Of a DNA stretch of 64,000 nt, positions 47,058-57,556 are shown one piece after another (within the stretch, counting starts at the first letter, position 1; each line of letters begins with the position of its first letter). The position numbers and the translations under genes are program-made. The notes below the pieces were generated by a model. The model ran no database searches, had not been told where the DNA came from, and worked only from the letters and a program-made list of their open reading frames with translations. Source of the DNA: an uncultured bacterium (lineage in GTDB: Bacteria; Chlamydiota; Chlamydiia; Chlamydiales; SLFE01); assembly GCA_964584775.1 (NCBI GenBank), contig CAZPBC010000002.1:19627-83626 (forward strand). Direction: 5' to 3'.

Positions 47058-47297
47058 TCAGGGCTTTTGTTGATCTTGAGGGTAGGTGGTACGAGCTGCC
47101 TCTTGGAGCTCTTTCCAGGAGCCGCGGTCGAGCCAGCCCCAGCTGCCATTCCAGAAGAGGATGAAGGTGATGATGCCCCAGAGAGGGACAAGAAGATAGC
47201 TCCACATGAGCCAACGAGGAGCGCCCGCATCCTTTTCGATATAGGGAGGAACTGTATCATCTTCAACGCCTTCCATCCATTCGTTGTCTGTTGTCAT
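47058..47297 (-). CDS. Small membrane protein resembling only the N-terminal TM domain of CcoP/FixP (FixP_N-like)
   Basis: The start is reassigned to ATG 47297 (MTTDNEW..), which overlaps the upstream small-ORF stop as ATGA. IEKDAGAPRWLMWSYLLVPLWGIITFILF matches the FixP N-terminal pattern. No haem motif. Confidence 0.6.
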   Translation of the reverse strand: MTTDNEWMEGVEDDTVPPYIEKDAGAPRWLMWSYLLVPLWGIITFILFWNGSWGWLDRGSWKELQEAARTTYPQDQQKP

Positions 47298-47455
47298 TCG
47301 TCCTCCTCGAAAAGTTGCCATTTAGGGGATTCGTCAAAGCTGAGTCTTTTCGTGAGCAGGAGCGTCACGAAGAAGATGAACGCCGTGCCACCGAGTAGCG
47401 ACGCGATCAGAAGCGCGTAGTGCGCACCCACAATACCGATTCCATCAGCGACCAT
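47294..47455 (-). CDS. Unlisted 53-aa single-TM ORF, CcoQ/FixQ-like
   Basis: Manual translation gives MVADGIGIVGAHYALLIASLLGGTAFIFFVTLLLTKRLSFDESPKWQLFEEDE*. Its ATG overlaps the ccoO end by 11 nt and its stop overlaps the next start (ATGA). It is below the track's size cutoff. Confidence 0.55.
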   Translation of the reverse strand: MVADGIGIVGAHYALLIASLLGGTAFIFFVTLLLTKRLSFDESPKWQLFEEDE

Positions 47456-48686
47456 CAGCGGCTCCCACGACTTGAGGTTTTCCCTCGATGATTTTGAGAG
47501 TGTCGACAGGGTCTTTACCCAACCACCAGGCCTGAGTCGGTGGAGTGATGCGGGTTCCCTTGGTCATCAGGTATTGGAAGATCGCTTCGAAATCCTGGTT
47601 AGGGACGCCGGCGACCGATCTAGCCGTCCCGCGTGGGTCAAAGTCGAAGAAGTGGCGGAAGGAGGGCATGATACTTCCCGCAGACGCTGTCTTTGGAGCC
47701 CAGAAGTGGGACTTGTGCCAATCGCGGCTGGGACGCTTGACGCCGACACGAGAGAGGTCAGGGCCGTTGCGTTTGGTACCGGGGAAGGTCACCTTCTGAT
47801 AGATGTATTCGTTGGCAGAGGAGGGGGGAGCCGGGTAGTCTTCAGAACCGTTCGCGACCACATCTTGGACTAGGGTGCGTGTTTGGTCGGTATGGCAGTA
47901 AAAGCAGCCTTCGTGAGCGTAGATCTCCTGTCCACGTAAGATCAGCTCTTTTCTTGAACGGAAGCCGAGCGCCTTGTCCGTGAGCTCCTCGACACTCGCC
48001 ACCGCGCGCCCTCGCGGGTCGTACTTCCAGGTCTTTGATTTGCCCACACCGTACTCGCGGATGCGGTACTCTTCAGGATTTTTCACAAAGATGACTCCTG
48101 GATCGCGGTGCCAAGAGGGAGGGTTGGAGCTCGTTTCGAGAATTTTGAAGTCTTCGTCGACAAAATCTTCCACCAGCCCTTCTGTTCTTGAAAGGGAAAA
48201 GGCAGAATCCACGCCGGGATCATAGAGCTCTAGGAAAGTGTGTTCAATGTCTCCCTTGAGTTGTGTACGCTTTTGTTCTGCGGCAGCAACCGCATCAAAA
48301 CTCTCTTTCTTTTCTGGCTTCCTGAGAAGCAGCAGCTTCGAGGTTAAAACCAGCGGTTTTGCTTCCACAGCCGTGACGTACTCTTCTAGTTCTTTGGGTG
48401 CGACAATCTTGACGCTTTCTGTCTCTTGGAAAGCGAGGAGTGTCTCCCCTGATTTTAGGTGGTGCACATACTCCAGTTTTTTGATCCCCGCAGATTCGCT
48501 ACTGATGTAGAGGTTGGGGTCGGAGACTTCGTACATCTGGACTTGGTAGTAGGAGGTGGGCGTCTTCCAAGAGGGGTCGATGAAACGCGGAGCACTCAGT
48601 GTGACAACGATGGCCGTGCTATAGAGGAAGACCACACCTAGAAAGACCCAGAGAAGAGAAGCTTCGAAGCGAGAGGGTGTCTTCAT
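47445..48686 (-). CDS. ccoO: cbb3-type cytochrome c oxidase monohaem subunit CcoO/FixO with a ~200-aa insertion
   Basis: 413 aa with an N-terminal TM. RGQEIYAHEGCFYCHTDQTR (CXXCH), GTKRNGPDLSRVGVKRPSRDWHKSHFWAPK..SIMPSF. ATGA overlap with ccoN. Confidence 0.82.
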   Translation of the reverse strand: MKTPSRFEASLLWVFLGVVFLYSTAIVVTLSAPRFIDPSWKTPTSYYQVQMYEVSDPNLYISSESAGIKKLEYVHHLKSGETLLAFQETESVKIVAPKELEEYVTAVEAKPLVLTSKLLLLRKPEKKESFDAVAAAEQKRTQLKGDIEHTFLELYDPGVDSAFSLSRTEGLVEDFVDEDFKILETSSNPPSWHRDPGVIFVKNPEEYRIREYGVGKSKTWKYDPRGRAVASVEELTDKALGFRSRKELILRGQEIYAHEGCFYCHTDQTRTLVQDVVANGSEDYPAPPSSANEYIYQKVTFPGTKRNGPDLSRVGVKRPSRDWHKSHFWAPKTASAGSIMPSFRHFFDFDPRGTARSVAGVPNQDFEAIFQYLMTKGTRITPPTQAWWLGKDPVDTLKIIEGKPQVVGAADGR

Positions 48687-55586: not shown

Positions 55587-55589
55587 CGT

Positions 55590-55727
55590 TTAGTCGTCCT
55601 TATCATTTCGAAAAAGTTCATATTTCACATCCTCGACATCATCGAAGTGTCCCTTCCTCCAAAAGAGATAGGTCACAACAAGCGTCGAAACTCCCATCAG
55701 AGAAGTTAAAAGTAACAGACCATCCAC
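55590..55727 (-). CDS. 45-aa single-TM ORF between the flavoprotein and Rieske genes
   Basis: The GTG start shares a G with the upstream stop (TAGTG). VDGLLLLTSLMGVSTLVVTYLFWRKGHFDDVEDVKYELFRNDKDD. The track's longer 72-aa version would overlap the upstream gene by 82 nt. Confidence 0.45.
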   Translation of the reverse strand: MDGLLLLTSLMGVSTLVVTYLFWRKGHFDDVEDVKYELFRNDKDD

Positions 55728-57556
55728 TATCCAATCCACCGAATTGAGTAATTCATCACATCCATCGTCACAGCTTGAGTCGGGCACTTCTCTGCACAGA
55801 GACCGCAACGGATGCAGAGGTCCTCATCTTTTAACATTGCCGTCCCCATCAAATCAAGCTCAGACTCGTCGATCTCATCCGAGTCCACACTGTAGAGGTT
55901 ATCGACCGCTTGACGCAGTTTCCCATCTCCTTGGTCGAGGTTGAGCTGGCTGAGCGGAACTTGCTTTAAGCAGTTACAAGGACAGACATCGACGCAGCCG
56001 TTGCACTTGATGCAAAGCGCTCCATCGAAGACGGGGTTGACATGGCACTGAAGGCAGCGGTTGGCCTGCTCGTGGGCCGACTCATCGGTGTAGTTATTCT
56101 CCACCATGTTCCAGTTCTCTTTCCTCACTTCCTTCGGCTGAGAGGTCGGGAGAGCGTAGTCGGTGCGGAGGTAGTCTTTATTCCGGATAGGAGAGATCTC
56201 GGTGAACTCGCCAACCACCTCCTGGTAGGGACGTGTCCCTCGGAGGTCTGTGTCAATGGTCCGTGCGGCTTCTTGTCCATGACGGATCGCCGTGATGAAG
56301 AGCGCCGGACCGAAGGCAGCGTCGCCGCCTGCATAGACGCCTTCAACAGAGGTGCGCCCTGTCTCGCGCTCTGTCTGAATGATCCCTCTGTCGATCTTGA
56401 GCTGATCGGCCTTCTCCCAGCCGTTTAGAAAGCTGGTATCCATCGACTGTCCGATGGCAAGAGCGATCGTGTCGCATTCAATCACCGACTCATCTCCCTC
56501 AATGAACTGCGGTGCGAAGCGGCCGTCACTGTCAAAAAGAGAGGAGATTCTTTGGACCTTCAGCCCAACGATTTTGCCCTCCTCATCGCGGAGGATCTCT
56601 TTCGGACCCACACGGTTGACAATGGTCACTCCCTCTTCTAAACCATCTTCAATTTCAAACTCATCCGCCGTCTGCTCATCACGCGCCTCCAGACAGGTCA
56701 TCGTCACCTCAGCGCCGTTCCGTACCGAGGTCCGCGCAACGTCGAAAGCAACGTTCCCCCCCCCAATGACCACCATCTTTCGACCGATCGACCACTTCTC
56801 CTCAGCACAGAGGACCCGTAAATACTCGATTCCTCGGATGACGTCGGGGGCATCTGCACCGGGAATCGGAAGGGAGCGGGAACGCCAGAGACCGATCCCG
56901 ATAAAGATGGCATCGTATTTCTCCTCGAGCTCGCTCATCAAAATATCGCGCCCGACCTTCGTGTTATAGATGATCTTAGCCCCGAGGTGTTCGATCGCAG
57001 CACACTCATTGAGAGCGACTTCGTTCTTCAAACGGTAGTTCGGGACACCGTAGGTGAGCATCCCCCCTGCCATGCGCATCATCTCAAAGACATCCACTTC
57101 ATAGCCGAGGCGGAGGAGGTCGTGAGCGACCGTCAGGGAAGCGACACCTGCGCCGAGGCAGGCCACCTTGAGACCATTTTTCTTTGGCTTTGTCGAGCCA
57201 CGGGCATAAGAATACTCAAGTGATTGAATATGAGCTTTTTTTGAATAACCAAACCACTCATCCAGGTAGCGCTTTTGGGCTCGAATCGTGAGAGTTTTAT
57301 CGACCCGGTCACGGCGGCAAGAGATCTCACACGGGGCCCCACAGATCAAACCACAGATCGAGGCGAAGGGATTCGGTCCACGAGCGATCTTGTAGCCCTC
57401 TAAATAGTTTCCCGCATGGAGCGCCATCATATAGCCGCGGCCATCGGTGTTCACAGGACATCCGTCACGACAGTCGATCTGTCTTAAGTAGTAATCGAGG
57501 TCAGGGACTACCGCATCGTAAAGGGGCTTATAAATCTCTTCAGGATCGTCGGACAT
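55727..57556 (-). CDS. GltD-like NAD(P)H-dependent FAD/FeS oxidoreductase with a C-terminal 2x[4Fe-4S] ferredoxin domain
   Basis: 609 aa. N-terminal helical FeS domain (CPVNTD..NPFASICGLICGAPCEISC), Rossmann motifs VACLGAGVASLTVAHDL and VVIGGGNVAFDVAR, and CIKCNGCVDVCP plus CIRCGLCAEKCP. Confidence 0.85.
   Translation of the reverse strand: MSDDPEEIYKPLYDAVVPDLDYYLRQIDCRDGCPVNTDGRGYMMALHAGNYLEGYKIARGPNPFASICGLICGAPCEISCRRDRVDKTLTIRAQKRYLDEWFGYSKKAHIQSLEYSYARGSTKPKKNGLKVACLGAGVASLTVAHDLLRLGYEVDVFEMMRMAGGMLTYGVPNYRLKNEVALNECAAIEHLGAKIIYNTKVGRDILMSELEEKYDAIFIGIGLWRSRSLPIPGADAPDVIRGIEYLRVLCAEEKWSIGRKMVVIGGGNVAFDVARTSVRNGAEVTMTCLEARDEQTADEFEIEDGLEEGVTIVNRVGPKEILRDEEGKIVGLKVQRISSLFDSDGRFAPQFIEGDESVIECDTIALAIGQSMDTSFLNGWEKADQLKIDRGIIQTERETGRTSVEGVYAGGDAAFGPALFITAIRHGQEAARTIDTDLRGTRPYQEVVGEFTEISPIRNKDYLRTDYALPTSQPKEVRKENWNMVENNYTDESAHEQANRCLQCHVNPVFDGALCIKCNGCVDVCPCNCLKQVPLSQLNLDQGDGKLRQAVDNLYSVDSDEIDESELDLMGTAMLKDEDLCIRCGLCAEKCPTQAVTMDVMNYSIRWIG

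Follow-up and report, generated by a model that had tools for sequence, protein, structure and literature searches.

The window, the 64,000-nucleotide stretch of chlamydial DNA analysed here, carries nine minus-strand ORFs from 57556 to 47058, each present where a previous sequence-only reading had placed it, in the 5' to 3' order flavoprotein, 45-aa ORF, Rieske protein, cytochrome b, heptahaem cytochrome c, CcoN, CcoO, 53-aa ORF and FixP_N-like ORF (Table 1). Their intergenic spacing, read from the sequence, runs from +3 to -20 nt, and the junction sequences agree with the tiny gaps and overlaps described earlier. One terminator-like hairpin, lying between the end of the upstream gene (57679) and the start of the flavoprotein gene, is probably the 5' boundary of the operon; a weaker one immediately 3' of the final stop codon is probably its 3' boundary. 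Conservation of synteny in at least 46 chlamydial species, together with these flanking hairpins, upholds the earlier view of one tightly coupled unit, and co-transcription of the nine genes is very likely. As the same reading held, the operon's nine ORFs include neither a separate cytochrome c1/f gene nor a complete CcoP, the CcoP haem domain being missing.

Table 1. Genes and flanking hairpins of the operon, listed in order of transcription, with the junction to the next gene.
Feature	Coordinates	Strand	Basis of assignment	Junction to next gene
Terminator-like hairpin, 5' side; 14-bp stem, 8 G-C pairs, T-rich tail	57637..57670	-		
Flavoprotein, 609 aa, cytoplasmic, NfnB/GltD-type FeS	55727..57556	-	domain matches, motif analysis	TAGTG, 1-nt overlap
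45-aa single-helix membrane peptide, acidic tail, GTG start	55590..55727	-	FixS/CcoS-like	gap 3 nt
Rieske [2Fe-2S] protein, 169 aa, Tat signal and membrane anchor	55077..55586	-	domain matches	gap 3 nt
Cytochrome b, 441 aa, cytochrome b6/subunit IV fusion, seven hydrophobic segments	53748..55073	-	domain matches, alignments	0 nt
Heptahaem cytochrome c, 1220 aa, membrane-anchored	50085..53747	-	domain matches, alignment	overlap 20 nt
CcoN, 473 aa, catalytic subunit of C-family (cbb3) haem-copper oxidase	48683..50104	-	COX1, 259 bits	ATGA
CcoO, 413 aa, monohaem FixO subunit	47445..48686	-	FixO, 87 bits	overlap 11 nt
53-aa single-helix peptide in CcoQ position	47294..47455	-	paralogue-like relative of the 45-aa peptide	ATGA, given last-ORF start 47297
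Last ORF, FixP_N-like anchor in CcoP position, without haem domain	47058..47321	-	PF14715 at family level	
Weak terminator-like hairpin, 3' side; 6-bp stem, 4 G-C pairs, T-rich tail	47026..47044	-		

The flavoprotein comprises an N-terminal Fer4_20 domain (two 4Fe-4S clusters), a Pyr_redox_2 region consisting of an FAD Rossmann fold followed by a second dinucleotide-binding Rossmann fold, and C-terminal 4Fe-4S motifs that form a 2x[4Fe-4S] ferredoxin domain accompanied by four further conserved cysteines. Its best solved relatives are the NfnABC/NfnA/NfnI/GltD NADPH-binding subunits, and it shares 33% identity over 597 aa with the Kustd1483-type protein of Kuenenia, with full-length homology and identical C-terminal cysteine motifs in the Kuenenia NAD(P) oxidoreductase subunit. 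At the end of beta2 in the second Rossmann fold, all 62 of 62 chlamydial flavoproteins, as well as homologues from Acidobacteriota, Bacteroidota and Nitrospirota, carry a glutamate within an invariant CLE motif, whereas YRR stands there in the Kuenenia protein and in those solved NADPH-binding relatives that were aligned. The description of the protein as an NAD(P)H/FeS flavoprotein therefore stands as regards the FeS clusters and is narrowed as regards the nucleotide, the motif looking NADH-type rather than NADPH-type. The same glutamate would suit catabolic NADH as electron donor no less than it would suit an enzyme that reduces NAD+.

The Rieske protein contains the cluster boxes CTHLGC and CPCHGSTY, and its Ser120 and Tyr122, a signature of high redox potential (PMC3509893, PMC4122944), are invariant across chlamydial orthologues. 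The best solved match is the Rieske domain of Kuenenia Kustd1480 (9rk3_A, E 2e-17), and potentials of +303 and +335 mV have been measured for anammox Rieske homologues. Cytochrome b retains four of four b-haem histidines, an APWY Qo motif, a highly conserved cytoplasmic linker (residues 250-300) and a chlamydia-specific Cys56-His57 pair. Its His50, invariant in all seven lineages compared, aligns with His62 of Kustd1481, predicted by AF3 to ligate an interfacial haem b from which the FeS chain is fed (bioRxiv 10.1101/2025.06.25.661457). The haem-cn cysteine is replaced by Thr66 and is missing from all cbb3-linked cytochromes b compared, but is kept in their non-cbb3 relatives. This cysteine marks the quinone-reduction site of b6f complexes; its loss does not prove loss of the Qi site, because bc1 complexes reduce quinone without haem cn.

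Seven CxxCH motifs (residues 81, 188, 265, 430, 547, 745 and 932) punctuate the heptahaem cytochrome, which consists of a single N-terminal helix, a region with haems 1-3 that has no match in Pfam, a class I domain (haem 4), a FixO-like domain with an insertion (haem 5), a Cytochrome_CBB3/CcoP-type region (haems 6-7) and a coiled-coil tail of roughly 200 aa. These FixO- and CcoP-type modules, and the position of the gene between the two complexes, agree with what had been proposed. The AF2 model (pLDDT 72.8) has a sole good PDB fold match, the Kuenenia dihaem protein 6h5l_B. All seven motifs align column for column with those of a 582-aa heptahaem protein of Thermoanaerobaculia and with a Bacteroidetes pair of five- and two-haem proteins, of which the dihaem gene lies directly upstream of CcoN.

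Alignment of CcoN with Pseudomonas stutzeri CcoN (3mk7_A) shows that the histidines of haem b, haem b3 and CuB and the helix-VII tyrosine are all conserved. Between its membrane anchor and haem domain CcoO has an insertion, about 200 aa long and poorly conserved, and its C-terminal extension is conserved; counterparts outside Chlamydiota are shorter, at 181-214 aa. The last ORF is 79 aa long from position 47297, the ATGA-coupled start chosen by gene callers, or 87 aa from the ATG at 47321, and its periplasmic tail is strongly conserved (WNGS.GWLDRG.W..LQ.AA.TT). Its suggested FixP-N likeness holds at family level: PF14715 is matched by 14 of the small ORFs scanned, a set that included 30 last-ORF orthologues, and the one match checked individually, a last-ORF orthologue, has the best score, 24.8 bits (cut-off 24.9); the window copy alone gives no PF14715 match. 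The 53-aa ORF occupies the CcoQ slot; its suggested likeness to CcoQ is weakly supported, and some orthologues match FixS. Orthologues of the 45-aa ORF match Pfam FixS (PF03597; 24-28.6 bits, cut-off 23.1), a likeness absent from the sequence-only reading.

In the synteny survey that this reading had proposed, 53 chlamydial species-level loci were of sufficient length to hold the six large genes, and 46 of these keep the operon order; median intergenic gaps lie between -20 and +14 nt. By script, CcoN is the next gene after the multihaem one in 60 of the 68 chlamydial loci, with a median gap of 5 nt across species, and one further locus (L070) holds a frameshifted copy; the arrangement is far beyond chance. 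The nine components also occur together in a member of the Thermoanaerobaculia (Acidobacteriota; L095), a Bacteroidetes MAG (L094) and an unplaced contig (L092), each with a FixS gene at the position of the 45-aa ORF, and the same parts are found in all 19 acidobacterial-type metagenome loci of sufficient length; an orthologous heptahaem cytochrome is among the shared parts. Thus, the nine parts stay together across three phyla and the module is not chlamydia-specific; the earlier framing by PVC lineage is misleading, because it is Acidobacteriota (Thermoanaerobaculia) and Bacteroidota, rather than Planctomycetes, that have the closest complete counterparts. In seven of the 68 chlamydial loci, and throughout metagenome group B (cbb3 genes adjacent in 0/9 loci), the Rieske/b-flavoprotein-multihaem part has no cbb3 genes beside it, and the two halves are therefore evolutionarily separable. 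Only fixNO appears to be listed for Protochlamydia amoebophila UWE25.

We favour, at somewhat better than even chances, a self-contained menaquinol-to-O2 assembly in which the flavoprotein ties the chain of low-potential b haems to NAD(H), with NAD+ reduction as the preferred direction. Quinol would be oxidised at the periplasmic Qo site of a Rieske/cytochrome b dimer resembling b6f. From the Rieske cluster the high-potential electron would pass to the heptahaem cytochrome, which would take the place of cytochrome c1/f as well as of CcoP's dihaem portion, and on through CcoO to CcoN, where O2 would be reduced. The haem-less FixP_N-like and FixS-like peptides may be remnants, or adaptors that join the halves or aid assembly. 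On the cytoplasmic side, the flavoprotein would dock on cytochrome b and use its 4Fe-4S clusters to exchange electrons with the chain of low-potential b haems; an additional haem b, bound by His50 from each of the two cytochrome b copies, is the probable link. The second electron of each quinol would then reach NAD+, driven by the O2-reducing branch, in a quinol-based bifurcation like that proposed for anammox complexes, and the resulting NADH could be re-oxidised by the organism's putative Na+-NQR. The route from Rieske cluster through heptahaem cytochrome to cbb3 oxidase is likely; docking of the flavoprotein on cytochrome b is fairly probable, and the gene content points, with modest confidence, to a stable supercomplex. 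As to the direction at the flavoprotein, NAD+ reduction has a nearly even chance, and NADH oxidation an only slightly lower one.

The high-potential Rieske signature and the loss of the haem-cn cysteine from cbb3-linked cytochromes b speak for NAD+ reduction. The host phyla use menaquinone, which leaves a large potential gap exploitable by bifurcation; Chlamydiae, Acidobacteriota and Bacteroidota are also heterotrophs with a ready supply of NADH, and it is not obvious why they would need quinol to drive the reduction of NAD+. A possible alternative, though one we hold with less conviction, is that the same assembly takes NADH as donor: electrons would pass from FAD along the FeS chain and n-side haem(s) to menaquinone at or near the Qi site, and the quinol would be re-oxidised at Qo of the same dimer with electrons going on to O2. 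The operon would then specify an entire NADH-to-O2 "respirasome" whose NDH-2-like entry does not pump, much as when FNR binds cytochrome b6f in cyclic electron flow. The glutamate of the CLE motif, in place of YRR, and the heterotrophy of the hosts speak for this direction. So do the late-stage expression of respiratory-chain genes and fixNO in Protochlamydia and the respiration of elementary bodies on glucose (PMC5451489, PMC3738481). However, electrons going from NADH to menaquinone would lose about 250 mV with no ions pumped in return, although according to the literature chlamydiae possess Na+-NQR; the cysteine tied to n-side quinone reduction in b6f has been lost from the cbb3-linked cytochromes b; and a high-potential Rieske signature would be unnecessary. 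Reversal of the Rieske/b part, in which c-haem electrons would be driven uphill to menaquinone or NAD+ by the membrane potential, follows the proposal of Kao and Hunte for the APWY clade; they tie reverse operation to APWY and a mid-to-high potential Rieske protein (PMC4122944), and both features are found here; with an O2-reducing cbb3 oxidase directly downstream as electron sink on the same wire, no periplasmic high-potential donor enzyme encoded in the operon, and heterotrophic hosts, it is very improbable.

Co-transcribed yet separate complexes, in which the heptahaem cytochrome is a tethered, laterally mobile bridge between a Rieske/b-flavoprotein complex and a CcoNO oxidase, much like cytochrome cy of Rhodobacter, would account for the genomes (some chlamydial, and group B) in which the halves lie apart, for the wire's being two proteins in L094 and L092, and for its single N-terminal helix. 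We consider this unlikely, given the 20-nt multihaem/CcoN overlap and the short gap at that junction across species, the retention of a CcoP anchor that lacks haem but keeps an invariant periplasmic tail, the paralogous FixS-like peptides in both halves, and the cohesion of the nine parts in three phyla. The high O2 affinity of cbb3 oxidases, which the chlamydial literature treats as micro-oxic or protective enzymes (PMC9816063), would fit an oxidase half that mainly scavenges O2 or NO to shield an oxygen-sensitive intracellular bacterium, with the flavoprotein supplying reductant and energy conservation secondary. This is improbable: free-living Acidobacteriota and Bacteroidota have conserved the elaborate Rieske/b machinery for quinol oxidation, which argues for a bioenergetic role, and the sequences hold nothing that separates an NO-reducing from an O2-reducing active site.

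A literature search found no published description of the cbb3-linked form of the module, in keeping with the earlier impression that the combination was new. The suspected link to the anammox Rieske/cytochrome b clusters proves to be true homology: flavoprotein, Rieske protein and cytochrome b are homologous to components of the Kuenenia Kustd1480-85 complex, whose proposed extra-haem-b histidine is conserved in the chlamydial cytochrome b. Because the uncharacterised module is also present in Acidobacteriota and Bacteroidota, an arrangement regarded as peculiar to anammox bacteria appears to be a widespread aerobic respiratory device.

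All nine minus-strand ORFs that a sequence-only reading had described as one operon, running from a flavoprotein through a 45-aa ORF, a Rieske protein, cytochrome b, a heptahaem cytochrome c, CcoN, CcoO and a 53-aa ORF to a FixP_N-like ORF, are present exactly where it had placed them. The junctions read from the sequence are TAGTG (1-nt overlap) between the flavoprotein gene and the 45-aa ORF; gaps of 3, 3 and 0 nt at the following three; a 20-nt overlap of the multihaem gene with ccoN; ATGA between ccoN and ccoO; and an 11-nt overlap of ccoO with the 53-aa ORF. The last junction is ATGA only with the 79-aa start of the last ORF, as opposed to the 87-aa start. 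A strong terminator-like hairpin stands between the flavoprotein gene and the gene upstream of it, and a weaker one follows the final stop codon; a promoter scan 5' of the flavoprotein gene yielded no convincing sigma-70-type site. The genes on either side have no relation to the operon and are of eukaryote-like effector type (RasGEF, LRR, unknown membrane proteins).

Other genes of the window are also listed in the table below. A CCB3/YggT-family gene lies four genes upstream of the operon; CCB proteins serve to attach haem cn in b6f systems, but YggT occurs widely, so the presence of this gene may be coincidence. Eight tandem paralogous ORFs represent an expanded outer-membrane protein family, and the two paralogues tested match Pfam Legionella_OMP (PF05150) with E values of 1e-25 to 1e-27. 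A large protein combining a Macro domain with a microbial poly(ADP-ribose) glycohydrolase (PARG) catalytic domain is neighboured by a second protein with a PARG domain, which a further ORF adjoins.

Positions of features in the window
Feature	Position	Strand	Remark
Operon	57556-47058	-	nine ORFs
Cytochrome b	53748-55073	-	441 aa
Heptahaem cytochrome c	50085-53747	-	1220 aa
Heptahaem tail	50085-50717	-	residues 1010-1220
CcoO insertion	47995-48585	-	residues ~35-230
Last ORF, longer form	start 47321	-	87 aa
Last ORF, shorter form	start 47297	-	79 aa
Strong terminator-like hairpin	57670-57637		
Weaker terminator-like hairpin	47044-47026		
CCB3/YggT-family gene	~62949-63215	+	88 aa; 533-799 in compared locus L001
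Eight tandem paralogous ORFs	29272-38010	-	~326-348 aa
Macro/PARG protein	13438-17763	-	1441 aa
PARG-domain protein and adjoining ORF	10316-11812, 11824-13311	-	498 aa, 495 aa

Homologues of the multihaem protein were all chlamydial (Estrella, Protochlamydia phocaeensis, Parachlamydia and many MAGs), and in a survey of one genome per species, with gene order obtained by tblastn with the nine window proteins, its relatives were present in at least 125 species genomes; the 80 loci kept all belong to Chlamydiota. The flavoprotein, Rieske and cytochrome b genes lie upstream of the multihaem gene in 61 of 62 loci, ccoN adjoins it in 60 of 68 (plus one frameshifted case), and all six large genes occur in order in 46 of the 53 loci long enough. 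Median gaps across the chlamydial loci are 3, 3, 14, 10, 5, -4, -4 and -20 nt. Seven loci stop after the multihaem gene; in one of the compared loci (L031), a pirin-like gene comes next. In the rows covered of the Protochlamydia amoebophila UWE25 expression table (PMC5451489, supplementary file 5), fixO (pc1977) and fixN (pc1978) are both classed as 'late I' and are followed by an unrelated HD-domain gene, and these rows hold no Rieske/cytochrome b entries; UWE25 may carry the oxidase half only, without the Rieske/b half.

To find relatives outside Chlamydiota, representatives clustered at 50% identity were searched exhaustively with the flavoprotein; the chlamydial proteins collapse into one cluster and about sixty clusters of full-length relatives, 40-47% identical, come next. 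Taxa are named as in the MAG records, with contig L092 and metagenome group B unplaced. Three of these loci carry an oxidase: the unplaced contig L092 (flavoprotein-FixS-Rieske-b6-subunit IV-pentahaem-monohaem-CcoN-CcoO-small peptide-CcoI); a Bacteroidetes MAG, L094 (flavoprotein-FixS-Rieske-b6-subunit IV-pentahaem-DsbD-dihaem-CcoN-CcoO-small peptide-CcoG-CcoI); and the acidobacterial Thermoanaerobaculia locus L095 (FixS-like-Rieske-fused cytochrome b-582-aa heptahaem-CcoN-CcoO-57 aa-104 aa, FixP_N-like-flavoprotein-CcoG-like-CcoI). The Nitrospirota locus L091 has a flavoprotein-Rieske-b6-subunit IV-tetrahaem cluster and no oxidase. Identities to the window proteins are 54-57% for cytochrome b (54% being the full-length value), 43-47% for CcoN, 42-44% for the flavoprotein, 35-39% for CcoO and, over the three cbb3-linked loci, 37-42% for the Rieske protein. 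A metagenome scan with a cytochrome b alignment returned at least 585 relatives, from which 80 loci were kept: 46 of acidobacterial type, with CcoN-CcoO-two peptides-flavoprotein in all 19 that have enough downstream sequence; 23 of a second group, group B, with the flavoprotein upstream, a ~460-aa multihaem protein and an oxidase in none of nine; and 11 chlamydial.

Several related clusters have other arrangements. A third metagenomic lineage, unplaced (loci L141-L146, L148, L154-L156, L159, L160, L164, L165, L167-L169, L171, L172, L174 and L175; for example L167, 7593-14127) encodes a flavoprotein, a Rieske protein, a fused cytochrome b, a 462-aa multihaem protein with FixO-like and CcoP-like domains and a 473-aa unknown protein, with no oxidase within 10 kb. 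Three loci without the flavoprotein, L087 (Omnitrophica), L088 and L089, join Rieske-b6-subunit IV to a multihaem cytochrome of ~1000 aa, with eight CxxCH motifs counted in L087; a HEAT-repeat gene is directly upstream in all three, preceded in L087 and L089 by an F-type ATP synthase operon, and COX3 and COX4 genes lie ~3.8 kb downstream in L087, with a multicopper-oxidase-like gene next in L089. One contig, L090 (JGI 3300034518), carries two tandem Rieske/b clusters, the first with a 611-aa flavoprotein at its head followed by an 829-aa multihaem protein and a 249-aa cytochrome c; another flavoprotein gene, of 580 aa, is nearby.

The multihaem cytochrome is encoded between the two halves of the operon. 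It has one N-terminal helix and seven CxxCH motifs: the stretch holding haems 1-3 matches no Pfam family, haem 4 belongs to a class I domain, a FixO-like domain with an insertion carries haem 5, and Cytochrome_CBB3/CcoP-type domains (residues 735-1010) carry haems 6-7; a coiled-coil tail of ~200 aa ends the protein. In a joint alignment, the seven motifs share columns with the seven of the acidobacterial heptahaem protein and with the 5+2 of the Bacteroidetes pair; by this column-for-column correspondence the 1220-aa protein is assigned as an insertion-expanded orthologue of the ~580-aa heptahaem. Its doubled length relative to the acidobacterial orthologue is due to helical insertions (residues 270-400, 555-660 and 830-915) and the periplasmic C-terminal tail, which is poorly conserved in sequence and present in every case. 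A Foldseek search of the PDB with an AF2 model of residues 1-1010 (pLDDT 72.8) found no full-length structural relative; the single real match is the Kuenenia dihaem 6h5l_B, and the remaining matches are generic class I cytochromes and ACIII ActE with E values above 0.04. The sequence itself gives two weak Kuenenia cytochrome matches in the PDB.

CcoN, aligned with Pseudomonas stutzeri 3mk7_A, conserves GRLRPVH, YVHN, Y..W.GAHH and GHSH and thereby every metal ligand, comprising those of haem b and haem b3 and the three CuB histidines, together with the helix-VII tyrosine; in NCBIfam it matches ccoN best, with 263 bits against an equivalog cut-off of 583. CcoO, ATGA-coupled to CcoN, matches Pfam FixO at 87 bits against a cut-off of 29.6, carries one CxxCH (residue 261) and scores 76 bits in NCBIfam, below the equivalog cut-off of 201. 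At the junction of its membrane anchor and haem domain, chlamydial CcoO has a poorly conserved, chlamydia-specific insertion of ~200 aa; its counterparts in other phyla total 181-214 aa. A dihaem CcoP is lacking: the ORF at its position, of 79-87 aa, has no CxxCH, and the CcoP-type haem domains are located in the heptahaem protein. The window's own three small ORFs have no Pfam match, and FixS and FixP_N were recognized only by scanning many orthologues. Orthologues of the 45-aa ORF match Pfam FixS (CcoS) above the gathering score, as do some of the 53-aa ORF; FixP_N matches 14 members of the scanned small-ORF set, and the anchor is recognizable at the family level only; the one match checked individually, an orthologue of the last ORF, scores 24.8 bits against a cut-off of 24.9. 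From these matches the cco part is read as keeping the N-O-Q-P order, with only the membrane anchor of 'P' left.

A Tat signal, a membrane anchor and the boxes CTHLGC and CPCHGSTY mark the Rieske protein; the anchor and boxes are features of the b6f-like 'green clade' complexes, and the best solved match is Kuenenia Kustd1480 (9rk3, E 2e-17). Ser120 and Tyr122 after CPCHG, a high-potential signature, are invariant in the chlamydial proteins; Ser/Phe stands there in the acidobacterial and Bacteroidetes proteins and in Kustd1480, for which +335 mV was measured. In cytochrome b, which has seven hydrophobic segments, b6 and subunit IV are fused into one protein; the HRW..H...LH and LH......VH pairs that supply the four bL/bH histidines are identical to those of spinach cytochrome b6 and the four histidines are invariant across 68 orthologues. 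The subunit IV part has three helices, compared with five in Kuenenia and Omnitrophica. Instead of the green-clade split proteins with a haem-cn cysteine, the position of b6 Cys35 is Thr66; the cysteine ('TWCMGG') is kept in the Kuenenia, Nitrospirota and L090 homologues and missing in all four cbb3-linked lineages (Chlamydiota, L095, L094 and L092). The Qo motif APWY is common to the chlamydial, cbb3-linked and anammox relatives. The segment 'FLH50FH52P' aligns with 'FLH62LH64P' of Kuenenia, and His50, on the n-side, is invariant in all seven lineages compared. AlphaFold3 models of the Kuenenia complex place an extra haem b at His62, on the dimer axis, with a chain of four FeS clusters running from it to FAD (bioRxiv 10.1101/2025.06.25.661457). 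His50 is proposed by this comparison as a ligand of an extra interfacial haem b, the ligation by Kuenenia His62 being itself an AlphaFold3 prediction.

Cytochrome b also contains Cys56-His57 ('HPVKCH'), invariant in 68 chlamydial proteins and nine residues upstream of the b6f haem-cn binding position. As a family-wide stand-in for the lost cysteine this pair was rejected, because it is missing in the acidobacterial, Bacteroidetes, L092, Nitrospirota and Kuenenia homologues; possibly it forms a lineage-specific single-Cys haem site.

The flavoprotein (609 aa) comprises Fer4_20, Pyr_redox_2 and a C-terminal 2x[4Fe-4S] domain, and its nearest solved relatives are the NADPH-binding subunits of the electron-bifurcating NfnABC, NfnA and NfnI, and also GltD. 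In BLASTP it is 33% identical to a Kuenenia protein of the Kustd1483/Kuste4570 type over 597 aa (E 5e-94), with identical C-terminal Cys/cluster motifs; as in the anammox clusters, the gene for a GltD/NfnB-like FeS flavoprotein lies inside the Rieske/b cluster. The dinucleotide site differs. In the Kuenenia protein and in those solved NADPH-binding relatives that the alignments include, 'YRR' follows the GGGN.A.D Rossmann motif, which is an NADPH-type site. The second Rossmann fold of the window protein ends in 'CLE(A/S/T)', with Glu290 invariant in 62 of 62 chlamydial orthologues, and the other non-anammox homologues also have 'CLE' with this Glu. Judged by the general Rossmann-fold rule, NADH and not NADPH is the predicted nucleotide. 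By analogy with the Kuenenia models, the most likely location of the flavoprotein is the cytoplasmic side of cytochrome b.

Electrons probably pass from quinol via the Rieske protein and the heptahaem cytochrome to CcoO/CcoN and O2, as indicated by the established roles of these families, by the CcoP-type character of haems 6-7 and by an operon that encodes neither a c1/f subunit nor a haem-bearing CcoP. A stable supercomplex is a plausible form of this route: the CcoP anchor is retained with an invariant periplasmic tail, FixS-like peptides occur in both halves, the genes are translationally coupled and they are co-inherited in three phyla. The two halves are found apart in some genomes, which argues against an obligate association.

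At the flavoprotein, electrons could flow in either direction. NAD+ reduction through O2-driven bifurcation of quinol is slightly favoured, on account of a high-potential Rieske protein in host phyla that generally use menaquinone, a haem cn that has been lost and an architecture shared with the anammox complexes. Oxidation of NADH at the flavoprotein would explain the operon almost as well, and agrees with the NADH-type dinucleotide site and the heterotrophic hosts. For the APWY clade as a whole, no member of which had by their account been characterized, Kao and Hunte (PMC4122944) suggested reverse operation; the presence of an oxidase on the same wire makes this unlikely for the whole complex and argues against reverse running as a general rule for the clade. 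Under bifurcation, one electron of each menaquinol would pass through the heptahaem cytochrome and the cbb3 oxidase to O2, and the other through the b haems, the extra interfacial haem b and the FeS chain to NAD+; an 'NAD cycle', which Na+-NQR closes, would stand in for the Qi half of the Q cycle, and in this way, it is proposed, the large potential gap between menaquinol and oxidase would be conserved as extra ion translocation. That the operon is such an O2-driven, quinol-based bifurcating machine, and a general mode of aerobic energy conservation in menaquinone bacteria, is advanced only tentatively and is considered less likely than not.

The operon is real, widespread and, as judged from a full-text search of openly available literature in which no description of a flavoprotein-Rieske/b-cbb3 operon was found, uncharacterized. 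In the chlamydial literature 'CcoNO' and 'PetBD' count as two KEGG items (PMC9816063), and the other chlamydial genome papers examined do not mention the unit; the two would belong to a single unit that has an NAD(H) link and a giant cytochrome expanded in this lineage, which alters reconstructions of chlamydial respiratory chains. In the anammox literature the NAD(P) oxidoreductase subunit is a striking special feature, the function of the complexes bearing it is a hypothesis only, and no driving acceptor reaction is proposed for Kustd1480-85. The operon is useful for testing this hypothesis: homologous complexes are spread widely among ordinary micro-aerobic heterotrophs, with at least 125 chlamydial species genomes, many Acidobacteriota of peat and soil, Bacteroidota and Nitrospirota as carriers; fusion with a cbb3 oxidase in three lineages names the acceptor as O2; and handling is far easier than that of anammox enrichments. 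If true, bifurcation would, given how common the module is in Acidobacteriota and Bacteroidota, be a general and so far unrecognized way for menaquinone bacteria to conserve energy aerobically, and would provide an aerobic, experimentally tractable proof of a mechanism proposed, and never shown, for anammox bacteria.

Compared with canonical ccoNOQP, the operon has a CcoN with all metal ligands, a CcoO with the FixO fold, the matching order N-O-(small peptide)-(FixP_N-like peptide) and a FixS/CcoS-like peptide, and its acidobacterial and Bacteroidetes counterparts continue with CcoG- and CcoI-like genes, as in ccoGHIS; it differs in that CcoP is an anchor only, its dihaem module lying in the C-terminal part of the heptahaem protein encoded upstream of CcoN, in the CcoO insertion and in CcoN and CcoO scores below the equivalog cut-offs. 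The bc1-cbb3 supercomplexes of Rhodobacter capsulatus and Pseudomonas aeruginosa, known from cryo-EM, likewise lead from a Rieske/b quinol oxidase through membrane-bound c haems to cbb3, but with a canonical bc1 including cytochrome c1, a complete CcoP, separate operons, mobile or tethered cytochromes and neither flavoprotein nor heptahaem; association is experimental there and is read from genes here. Actinobacterial bcc-aa3, which the sequence-only reading had likened to the operon in logic, also dispenses with soluble cytochrome c, hard-wires complex III to the oxidase by a multi-haem c subunit and belongs to a menaquinone organism; with its A-family oxidase, dihaem QcrC, PDWY-clade cytochrome b and no flavoprotein, it is an analogy and not a relative. 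Cytochrome b6f with bound ferredoxin:NADP+ reductase, known from cyclic electron flow, resembles the operon in that a cytoplasmic or stromal flavoprotein links pyridine nucleotides to n-side haems, but that reductase is an unrelated flavoprotein, peripherally bound and without an operon link to its complex, and electrons enter via haem cn, which is missing here.

The APWY clade of Kao and Hunte corresponds to group A2 of Baymann et al. (2012), in which the cytochromes b of Parachlamydia and Waddlia were already placed with Kuenenia, and shares with the operon the Qo motif and a mid-to-high potential Rieske protein; those papers deal with cytochrome b and Rieske phylogeny only, and fusion with an oxidase points away from the reverse operation. 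The resemblance to anammox complexes that the sequence-only reading had noted at the head of the operon reflects real homology, as the flavoprotein and the best solved Rieske match attest, but its framing as a trait of PVC lineages did not hold: inheritance within the PVC group was discarded, because the complete counterparts closest to the operon belong to Acidobacteriota and Bacteroidota, and Kuenenia is more distant. Kustd1480-1485 and Kuste4569-4574 have a homologous flavoprotein (full length, including Cys motifs), a homologous Rieske protein, a cytochrome b with APWY and a histidine equivalent to His50 (Kustd1481 His62), and a large N-terminally anchored multihaem protein in place of cytochrome f whose first haem motifs are recognizably related; similarity to the window protein is only local but collinear (N-terminal helix, 'DRC.SCH', 'HP.E.(Y/F)GC..CH.G'). 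Co-migration of the flavoprotein with a membrane complex is, in the part of the literature covered, reported for Kuenenia only. In the Kuenenia-type locus L086 the order is Rieske-b6-flavoprotein-subunit IV-945-aa octahaem. The operon differs from the Kuenenia complexes in its fused b6 and subunit IV, the latter shortened to three helices from five, the missing haem-cn cysteine, 'CLE' for 'YRR' and seven haems for eight; in place of an HAO-like partner it co-encodes a cbb3 oxidase with FixS-, CcoQ- and CcoP_N-like peptides, and its hosts are heterotrophs, in contrast to the anammox chemolithoautotroph Kuenenia.
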